From: Escherichia coli
GTDB taxonomy: Bacteria > Pseudomonadota > Gammaproteobacteria > Enterobacterales > Enterobacteriaceae
Direction: 5' to 3' (one strand)
NCBI RefSeq assembly: GCF_003334765.1
Contig: NZ_QOWT01000051.1
DNA length: 19,576 nt
The position numbers were made by a program, and so were the translations under genes. The notes under the pieces are model-generated. The model ran no database searches. It saw nothing but the letters and a program-made list of their open reading frames with translations, and was not told the origin of the DNA. Shown in pieces: positions 7,610-10,078 of the stretch (the stretch's first letter is position 1; every line of letters begins with the position of its first letter).

Positions 7610-7921
7610 ACTCAGATATCGTCACCAGAATATGCCGCGTCAGCGGCATGGAAGGCGGCACTCAGTTGTTACATATGATACCGGAGTAAAACCGCCGAAG
7701 CCCGGCGTAAGCCGGTACTGATTGATAGATTTTGCCAATCCCATCCCCGCCCTGTTAAGCCATGCTCGCTTTCAGCCATGAGAGAGCTTCTGTGCGCGGT
7801 CGGAGTGGTCCCGACAAGGGTTTACCCGAAGTCGGGGCGTATCTCCGCGTTAGCGGGCCGTAAGGGCCGCTTACGAGCGTGTACTCAGTACTTCCAGCCA
7901 GAAGACTGACAGCGGTGATGA

Positions 7922-7944
7922 TGTTTAGTTACAACACCCATAAT
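7922..7944 (-). other. Ter (Tus-binding replication terminus) site, minus orientation
   Basis: Reverse complement reads GGGTGTTGTAACTAAAC, matching the Ter core GNRNGTTGTAACTA. IncFII plasmids R1/R100 are known to carry Ter sites beside the origin. Confidence 0.5.
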
Positions 7945-8055
7945 TAAAAGCGACTCTGTTCCGGCCCTTGGGGCCGGGGCGGGGCGGCTTTTCAGTTATG
8001 AGGGAGGGGCTTTGTGGCTTCAGTTCTGCGCTGGTCCGGGGTTTTTCTGAGGTCT

Positions 8056-8078
8056 ATGTTTGCATGTTGTAACTAATG
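8056..8078 (+). other. Ter (Tus-binding replication terminus) site, plus orientation
   Basis: GCATGTTGTAACTAATG matches the Ter core GNRNGTTGTAACTA; inverted relative to the site at 7922-7944. Confidence 0.5.
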
Positions 8079-8149
8079 TGGCTCCGGTCGGGGCCCGCCG
8101 CTTGCGGTGGGAGGTGTATATCTGTCTGTCCACAGGACAGGCAGTGAAT

Positions 8150-8400
8150 AGGTTTTCTTTTTAAATGAATGTAATTAAGTAGTTTAAAGGAGATATAAAC
8201 AGGTGTTTAAAAGATACATTGCACCCTGTAGGGCTGGCGGCTGGCGCTTTATGAGATGAACGGTTGTAACCTTATCGGGAAGTCCCTTGCAGTTATATGT
8301 GGATAAGCAAAATTACCCGTCTGTGAGGCGTGTTTTGTATCAAAAACAAGGGGGACCGGATGCACCTGAAGGTGGATGATGAGGTTGTTTTTTTGTATGT
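8150..8400. other. IncFII vegetative origin region (oriR), approximate bounds
   Basis: Immediately downstream of repA1 as in R1/R100: AT-rich tract at about 8152-8220 and a DnaA box TGTGGATAA (reverse complement TTATCCACA) at about 8298-8306. Confidence 0.55.
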
Positions 8401-8482
8401 GGTGCTGATTTTTTGTGCGCTGTCGGGCCTCAGACGTGCGGAAGCCTCCGGCGCGTGCCGGATTATTCTGAGGAGGTCACTT

Positions 8483-9340
8483 TCAGGGGGAAGCTGTGGC
8501 CAGCCGGCTGTAATTGCGGTTACGCGACAGAATCATGCGCTCCTTCACACGACGCTCCACTTCACGTTTTACCGCCTCACGACTGGCAGTGAAGCGCCCT
8601 TCCGAGATTTCACGCGTCAGCTGTCGTTTCACCAGGGTGACGATATCCTGACGTTCCCTGCCCGCATCACGACGCGCACGGGCACGCTTTATTCCCCGGG
8701 ACTTAAGCTCTGTCTGGTAACTGCGGAAACGCTCACGCACAAAACGCCAGGCTTTCGCTATCAGTTCATCCATACCCAGGGTATCCAGCCCCTGCTTTTT
8801 GCGCTGTTTGTTTTCCCATACCACACGGCTGCGGCGCGCAGCTGCCACTGCATCCTCAGACACATCAAGGGCGGCAAACAGCGCCAGTGTGAACGTGATA
8901 TCGGTCGGAATGTAGCACCCGATAAGCGGGTCATATTCCGTCTGGTAGGTAATCAGTCCCAGCTCTGACAGGGACGTCAGGGCCCGGGTGGCCCGGGTGA
9001 TGGAGAGTTTTCCTGCACCGGACTCTGTCGCCAGTCCGCACTCAATGGCCAGCGTGGTGATGGAACACTGGACGCGGTTGGCCAGCGGGTCATAATGGAA
9101 ACACAGCCCCTGCAGCAGCGCATCAATAGCCCGTCGACGCAGCACCGGTGGCATGCGTCGACGCAGACCACGCGAACGGGCATGCGCCACATGAATAGCG
9201 AAATCAAAACGGGAGCTGAAGCCCACCGCTTTTTCCATCAGTTTTTCGCAGAACTTCAGCGTTCCGGCACCTTCACGGGGTGTGAACACCGGATTCGGGT
9301 TCTTTACCTGGCGGTAATACGTTTGGTGAAGATCAGTCAC
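8483..9340 (-). CDS. repA1: IncFII replication initiator RepA1
   Basis: Near-identical to the recalled R100/R1 RepA1 ([40 protein letters not shown]...[12 protein letters not shown]). The likely start is the GTG giving MTDLHQ (285 aa); the track ORF 8483..9352 begins four codons earlier. Confidence 0.95.
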
Positions 9341-9407
9341 ACCATCCTGCACTTATGTTGCACAGAAGGAGTGAGCACAGAAAGAAGTCTTGAACTTTTC
9401 CGGTCAT
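9333..9407 (-). CDS. tap: RepA leader peptide Tap (repA6), translationally coupled to repA1
   Basis: 24-codon [27 protein letters not shown] whose TGA overlaps the repA1 GTG start (GTGTGACTG); size and position match the IncFII tap peptide. Confidence 0.6.
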
Positions 9408-9418
9408 ATAACTATACT
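9390..9418 (+). promoter_or_regulatory. CopA antisense-RNA promoter
   Basis: -35 TTGAAC, 17-bp spacer, -10 TATACT, directed opposite to repA mRNA. Confidence 0.55.
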
Positions 9419-9425
9419 CCCCGCA

Positions 9426-9511
9426 TAGAGCAACAGCTTCTATGCAGTTTCTTGTTAGCCCCGGTAATCTTCTCTTAGTCGCCAAACCTGGTGAAGATTA
9501 TCGGGGTTTTT
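9426..9511 (+). ncRNA. copA: CopA-like antisense RNA (copy-number control)
   Basis: About 85 nt from the predicted start to an intrinsic terminator: long stem CCCCGGTAATCTTC/GAAGATTATCGGGG followed by TTTTT. Lies in the repA leader between copB and tap, antisense to repA mRNA. Confidence 0.6.
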
Positions 9512-9566
9512 GCTTTTCTGGCTCCTGTAGATCCACATCAGAACCAGTTCCCTGCCACCTTACGGC

Positions 9567-9578
9567 GTGGCCAGCCAC
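9567..9578. promoter_or_regulatory. Candidate CopB operator at the repA promoter
   Basis: Inverted repeat GTGGC-ca-GCCAC between copB and the CopA region, where CopB is known to repress PrepA in IncFII plasmids; exact promoter elements not resolved. Confidence 0.3.
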
Positions 9579-9644
9579 AAAATTCCTTAAACGATCAGTA
9601 ATCTAGCACTAATCTTCTGAACACTCAAGAATGTAAGCCCATCA

Positions 9645-9899
9645 TCACATGCATCGTTTTTGCGCTTCACTTTTTATCAGTGCGGTCAGAACTTCAGCCT
9701 GGGTCAGGCCATCTTCATTACACATTTGCATGAGCATGGCCTTATACTTTGGTTCGAGAAATACTTTTACTTCCTTGAACGAAGCTCTTTTACGGGCCAC
9801 TGATAATCTTTGTTTCTCTGCATCAGAAAGCGGATTCCCCTTTCTGTATGCTCGTTTTGCGCCAGATGAGGAAGTCACTGTATTTTCTGTCTGCGACAT
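9645..9899 (-). CDS. copB: Replication regulatory protein RepA2/CopB
   Basis: 84-aa ORF MSQTENTVTSSSGAKRAYRKGNPLSDAEKQRLSVARKRASFKEVKVF..., matching recalled IncFII CopB; upstream of the copA/tap/repA1 cassette. Confidence 0.9.
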   Translation of the reverse strand: MSQTENTVTSSSGAKRAYRKGNPLSDAEKQRLSVARKRASFKEVKVFLEPKYKAMLMQMCNEDGLTQAEVLTALIKSEAQKRCM

Positions 9900-10078
9900 C
9901 TCGCCTCCTCAATACTTAAACAGGGATCGTTTCGCAGAGAATACTACAGTTTTTTGAAATCAGCGACTTGAAAGTTGTGACGATGATCTGTGTTGGCGCA
10001 CAAATCATGTCTGATTACGACCGTTTAATGTAATTTTGATAATAAAATGACTGAAAAGTAGGAAATGCTTTAACCAGG

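Follow-up and report, generated by a model that had tools for sequence, protein, structure and literature searches.

A complete IncFII basic replicon beside a Citrobacter-like oxidase cargo in an Escherichia coli contig

Organization of the replicon module

The sequence considered here is a stretch of 19,576 nucleotides from Escherichia coli (contig NZ_QOWT01000051.1 of assembly GCF_003334765.1), referred to below as the window. The element of interest within it is a replication module that carries the repressor gene copB, the antisense RNA CopA, the leader peptide gene tap, the initiator gene repA1, the origin oriR with its DnaA box, and two inverted Ter sites. The coordinates and the basis of each assignment are collected in Table 1; within 7900–9900 all replicon elements lie on the minus strand except CopA. 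We conclude, with a probability of roughly 0.9, that window 7900–9960 constitutes the basic replicon, RepFIIA, of a plasmid of the IncF group. The replicon is a complete, textbook example of the IncFII (R1/R100-type) class, and the finding is correct but ordinary and already known. The initial annotation of this DNA had described a complete repA1 control region together with oriR, and each element it listed is indeed present at a level above chance. For comparison we used R100 (NC_002134, R100/NR1) as the reference, R1 being compared only through the literature, and the nearly identical plasmid pANT_425 (NZ_JBQGLE010000005.1), a circular E. coli plasmid of 86,145 bp with IncFII and IncFIB replicons.

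The initiator RepA1 agrees with its R100 counterpart at 277 of 285 amino acids (97%), the 8 amino acid changes being accommodated in the same length without indels. At the nucleotide level about 33 synonymous changes and 9 non-synonymous ones separate the two genes, which corresponds to a ratio of non-synonymous to synonymous substitution rates (dN/dS) of 0.084. The open reading frame (ORF) called mechanically begins at a GTG at 9352, while R100 and the RefSeq annotation of pANT_425 use the GTG at 9340. The TGA stop codon of tap overlaps this latter GTG within GTGACTGA, and the 8-nt overlap of the two genes recurs both in R100 and in the pANT_425 annotation. We infer from this arrangement that translation of tap and repA1 is coupled. 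The repressor gene copB is equally close to R100, with 98% nucleotide identity, equal length and 2 amino acid changes (82 of 84 residues match); in pANT_425 it is annotated as “replication regulatory protein RepA.” The tap gene, too, equals its R100 counterpart in length and differs from it by 4 amino acids. Alignment to R100 revealed no frameshift, stop or indel in copB, tap or repA1, and the reading of the module as intact, which by the criterion of the initial annotation would have fallen with disruptive mutations relative to R100 or R1, stands after careful alignment to R100.

By analogy with R1 and R100, the spacer between copB and CopT, the CopA target in the repA leader, presumably contains the CopB-repressed repA promoter. 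Our own candidate for this promoter within the spacer is TTGAGT-17-TAGATT, which matches 8 of 12 consensus positions and falls under the threshold of the promoter scan. At that threshold the sigma-70 scan reported neither the repA nor the copB promoter, and both were assigned by identity to R100.

Downstream of repA1, the spacer leading to oriR corresponds to the CIS region of R1 and R100, and by analogy with R1 it would have the CIS function here as well. The origin is 96.3% identical to that of R100 across 188 bp, and its AT-rich part is essentially invariant. The size of oriR (188 bp) and the role of its DnaA box have been described for R1 (PMC5883639). Beyond the origin, the Ter core GNRNGTTGTAAYKA is matched twice in the window, compared to 0.02 matches expected by chance, and two matches were reached in 0 of 200 shuffled sequences. 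The role of the corresponding terRL/terRR pair of R1 has been described, with the two ter sites located between oriR and the start of the leading strand (PMC10331603).

CopA and the FII allele

CopA is the one component of the module that departs substantially from R100. Its match to the Rfam model is full-length (model positions 1–92) with a score of 91.1 bits against a gathering score of 60, and the predicted fold consists of two stem-loops with a minimum free energy of −32.1 kcal/mol (z = −4.41). The copA promoter ends 7 nt before the 5' end of CopA as defined by Rfam and has the same −10 region as in R100, and a U-run directly follows stem-loop II. CopA/CopT is nevertheless only 70% identical to R100, with the changes located in the loops and in stem-loop I. 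Stem-loop I (9425–9443) differs almost wholly from that of R100, its 5-bp stem being kept through compensatory C-G to A-U replacement, and loop II retains the CGCCAA motif. This pattern of differences is the usual allelic variation of FII replicons.

Both sites for the FII typing primers of Villa et al. occur in the window and bound an amplicon of 261 bp (9338–9598). This amplicon is 100% identical to that of hundreds of plasmids, including pKF3-140 and pRSB225. The latter has been typed as F1:A1:B1 (PMC4707298). On the strength of this match to pRSB225, FII_1 is the probable allele of the window, an assignment made indirectly through pRSB225 instead of through the plasmid multilocus sequence typing database. 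Given that the allele is probably FII_1, the plasmid from which the window derives would be compatible with R100-type FII_2 plasmids.

The left block and its boundary with the F backbone

The initial annotation had also pointed to chromosome-like genes in the left part of the window. Their likeness to a chromosome is real, but the chromosome is that of Citrobacter sedlakii and not that of E. coli. The block forms a single collinear match of 5,946 bp at 97.9% identity to an 899-kb contig of C. sedlakii, other Citrobacter reaching about 80%, and the homology starts at position 104 on its left edge. When the protein of cytochrome bd subunit I was compared with species-representative genomes, the best match was likewise C. 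sedlakii, at 98% amino acid identity and on the 899-kb contig. An E. coli chromosomal origin of the block was considered and rejected; between 40 and 6090 only rlhA matches, at about 80%.

The genes carried are a MocR-like regulator, subunits I and II of a cytochrome bd-type (cyanide-insensitive-like) oxidase, a DUF2474 protein and a truncated U32 peptidase pseudogene. Plasmids from E. coli, Salmonella, Shigella and Klebsiella, at least 30 in all, share the oxidase core with 99.6% identity. Thus a cytochrome bd-type oxidase module derived from Citrobacter travels as plasmid cargo beside the replicon. One further plasmid from cattle E. coli, CP057477.1, reproduces window 1–8522 at its positions 6001–14522, including the cargo, the exonuclease gene, yacAB, the Ter sites and oriR. 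It keeps only the last 40 bp of repA1, which leaves an orphan FII origin with neither initiator nor control genes.

At the boundary between the cargo and the F backbone lies a miniature element of 286 bp, whose inverted repeats consist of GGGGTCCGCTTGGAAAACGGAAATTTTCCCACGCTAAG and a diverged partner. The element occurs in 1,798 plasmids of the PLSDB database and is unannotated there. A target-site duplication flanking the 286-bp element was looked for, and none was found. In many F plasmids devoid of the cargo, homology to the F backbone begins at about 6302. The distance from the chromosome-like junction to the replicon module had been given as 1.4 kb; it measures 1.6–1.9 kb, depending on whether the junction is set at 6019/6020 or at 6305/6306, and the interval is filled with ordinary F-backbone genes (the 3'–5' exonuclease gene and yacAB).

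Table 1. Features of the replicon module and of the adjoining left part of the window (CP057477 is the cattle E. coli plasmid described in the text).
Feature	Position	Strand	Basis or remark
IS3 end bounding the cargo	1–103	−	In pANT_425 and CP057477 the gene for the IS3 transposase extends into it
Cargo, Citrobacter sedlakii-like chromosomal slice, 5.9 kb	104–6019		Collinear DNA match
Miniature element, 286 bp, with 38-bp Tn3-family-like inverted repeats (GGGG...TAAG)	6020–6305		Cargo/F-backbone junction
DEDD-type 3'–5' exonuclease gene, F backbone, 3' end inside the miniature element	6093–6974	−	
yacB, partner of yacA, F backbone outside the replicon	7020–7301	−	Same basis as yacA
yacA, of a RelB/RelE-type toxin-antitoxin pair	7298–7567	−	Weak TIGR02384/TIGR02385 hits; YacA/YacB in pANT_425
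Ter site distal to oriR, inverted relative to the proximal site	7926–7939	−	Exact core match; aligns with R100 Ter
Ter (Tus-binding) site proximal to oriR	8062–8075	+	Exact core match; aligns with R100 Ter
oriR, approximate 188-bp minimal origin, boundaries approximate	8119–8306	−	DnaA box, RepA-binding stretch, then AT-rich region
DnaA box TTATCCACA	8298–8306	−	Perfect match
repA1–oriR spacer (CIS region of R1/R100)	8307–8482	−	93.8% identical to R100, one 1-nt indel in an A-run
repA1, GTG-initiated IncFII replication initiator, 285 aa	8483–9340	−	TIGR03474 equivalog, 572.7 bits against a cutoff of 446.9
tap leader peptide, 24 codons, 24 aa	9333–9407	−	Direct reading and translation; 20 of 24 aa match R100 Tap
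copA promoter TTGAAC-17-TATACT	9390–9418	+	Promoter scan, 9/12
CopA antisense RNA, 91 nt, complementary to CopT in the repA leader	9425–9515	+	Rfam RF00042
copB–CopT spacer	9516–9644	−	98.4% identity to R100 (2 mismatches in 129)
copB/repA2, transcriptional repressor of the repA promoter, 84 aa	9645–9899	−	NCBIfam PRK13702, 142.9 bits against a cutoff of 87

Working replicon and plasmid context

Several observations weigh against reading the module as the working replicon of a plasmid. The window is bounded by sequence of the insertion sequences (IS) IS3 and IS5, so it is not closable into a circle by itself. The RepFIB replicon of related plasmids could maintain them alone, and CP057477, typed as IncFIA/IncFIB, has the same cargo and oriR and has lost repA. 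The alternative that follows from the last two points is that the FII module is intact but a passenger on a plasmid maintained by RepFIB. The closest plasmids are in fact IncFIB/IncFII multireplicons, and CP057477 retains oriR and the cargo without repA1, tap, copA or copB and yet persists with its FIA/FIB replicons. In a dispensable replicon, however, lesions would be expected. Here several independent plasmids carry the module with 100% identity, none of its control elements is damaged, and the dN/dS of repA1 relative to R100 is low. We therefore regard a passenger role as unlikely. The view that FII is the only replicon of the closest plasmid, which would have established its function, is ruled out, as pANT_425 also has a RepFIB-type RepB. 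For the copy in the window, the dN/dS of 0.084 and the complete conservation across plasmids lend indirect support to autonomous RepA-dependent replication and to CopA-based incompatibility, both of which we would expect of this module from its sequence.

The initial annotation had left open whether the segment is a plasmid with chromosome-like genes as cargo or an active plasmid origin integrated in the chromosome. The evidence favours the former, and the latter is without support. Over its entire length the window has its matches in E. coli plasmid records and not in chromosomes, and the matches of high coverage and high identity are all plasmid records of 82–150 kb. The two halves of the window, whose physical linkage had been raised as a second check, are joined on a closed circular plasmid that is 1 base off window 1–12141.

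On the right, the IS5 end occupies 19503–19576, where 73 of 74 bases are those of K-12 IS5A, and its target is CTAA inside the IS66 tnpA gene.

Integration of the plasmid, or of a segment of it, into the E. coli chromosome by recombination mediated by IS3 or IS5 would give the module an unusual setting, in which an intact CopA-controlled FII origin could add initiations, in the manner of integrative suppression, or rescue dnaA/oriC defects. The window does end in IS3 on the left and IS5 on the right, both common on E. coli chromosomes and classic substrates for recombination of the Hfr (high frequency of recombination) type, and none of the close relatives found carries the IS5 insertion. The genome counts, though, show how rarely such a setting occurs. 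The 5,426 complete E. coli genomes compared contain 6,468 copies of the module, 6,417 of them on plasmids and 51 on chromosomes. This sets a prior of about 0.8% for a chromosomal location, and all matches of at least 99% identity are plasmid records. No E. coli chromosomal DNA flanks the module anywhere in the 19.6-kb window, the chromosome-like block being Citrobacter-like and plasmid-borne, and the best matches, as stated, are plasmids throughout. Integration is thus very improbable in our estimation, and the sole unusual reading of the locus, an active plasmid origin embedded in a chromosome, is removed. Decay of the module, through a mutation that disables repA1, CopA or oriR, is hardly credible and is refuted at the sequence level by the alignment to R100, which shows no lesion. 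The backbone around it is heavily eroded (tra reduced to a TraI fragment, several pseudogenes, IS insertions), but the coding sequences carry no lesion, the DnaA box matches perfectly, the AT-rich region is essentially that of R100, neither Ter core is damaged, and the Rfam model covers CopA in full.

Beyond correct annotation, the significance of the locus is modest. The assignment to a pAA-type IncF plasmid with a probable FII_1 allele is useful for replicon typing and epidemiology.

Predicted mode of replication

The R1 basic replicon spans about 2 kb and comprises oriR, repA, copA, copB and tap; translation of RepA is limited by CopA, and tap encodes a translational activator peptide (PMC5883639). 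DnaA occupies its box in oriR only if RepA is bound immediately downstream, and replication proceeds as a unidirectional theta (PMC5883639). The parts found in the window, their order and their spacing are those of this family, so the R1/R100 mechanism is the best explanation for the module. The sequence features are read directly from the window, and the biochemical steps are carried over from the R1/R100 family.

By analogy, RepA1 would be produced from two sources, namely the copB-tap-repA transcript and the repA promoter repressed by CopB. repA1 would be translated only where the tap leader, with its stop codon overlapping the repA GTG, is translated too. Constitutively made CopA would pair with CopT in the leader and block tap, and with it repA translation, and this block would set both copy number and incompatibility. 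RepA1 is predicted to act in cis at oriR beside the DnaA box, leading to opening of the AT-rich region, and the inverted Ter pair just past oriR may ensure that replication is unidirectional, with the fork halted after one round.

Additional features upstream of the module

Immediately upstream of copB lies a Hok/Gef-family toxin ORF of 48 amino acids (srnB-like, 10196–10342, minus strand), followed by remnants of a DUF2726 gene, the R100 version of which is intact. A strong Rfam match of 214 bits to AS-pc02 (RF02876), an antisense RNA described on pHK01, is located at 11111–11295 on the plus strand, where it overlaps the 3' part of an ANR-family regulator gene on the opposite strand.

Deletion has removed nearly all of the transfer region (12097–14221). 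FinO (11536–12096) is followed by an ORF of 270 amino acids and then by leading-region genes, and this ORF holds only an internal fragment of TraI (12317–13129). With so little of this region left, the plasmid is unlikely to be self-transmissible.

Comparison with R100 and pAA plasmids

The module is collinear with that of R100, with 96% identity over 2.36 kb and the same parts in the same order. The two plasmids differ in CopA/CopT, where the window has another FII allele and, presumably, another incompatibility specificity, and in the DNA downstream of oriR, which consists of yacAB and the exonuclease gene in the window and of a CPBP endopeptidase gene and pemIK in R100. Plasmids of the FII_1 type (pRSB225, pKF3-140 and many from E. 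coli) share the typing amplicon, and their remaining cargo is unrelated.

The closest relatives are found among the pAA plasmids of enteroaggregative E. coli (EAEC). pANT_425 is itself an EAEC pAA plasmid because it carries aggR, aap, aar, aatPABCD and aggDCBA. It differs from window 1–12141 by 1 base (99.992% identity) and is 99.92% identical to window 14222–19502; in place of window 12142–14221, which holds the TraI fragment and leading-region DNA, it has a Tn3/TEM-1 insertion with deletions. The pAA plasmids of strains IAL7250, IAL7252 and IAL7255 are closed circles with IncFIB/IncFII replicons (PMC13141912). In the window we found none of aggR, aap, aat or the genes for aggregative adherence fimbriae (AAF), and since aggR and the AAF genes lie outside it, the pAA identity is one that we infer. 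On this sequence comparison the plasmid is very probably a pAA-type virulence plasmid of EAEC, with RepFIB as a second replicon outside the window. It is set apart from the pAA plasmids pANT_425, IAL7250, IAL7252 and IAL7255 by the IS5 insertion in IS66 tnpA, which they lack, while the FII module itself (2,061 bp) is 99.5% identical to that of the IAL7255 pAA plasmid and 100% identical to those of pANT_425 and the IAL7252 pAA plasmid, among others.

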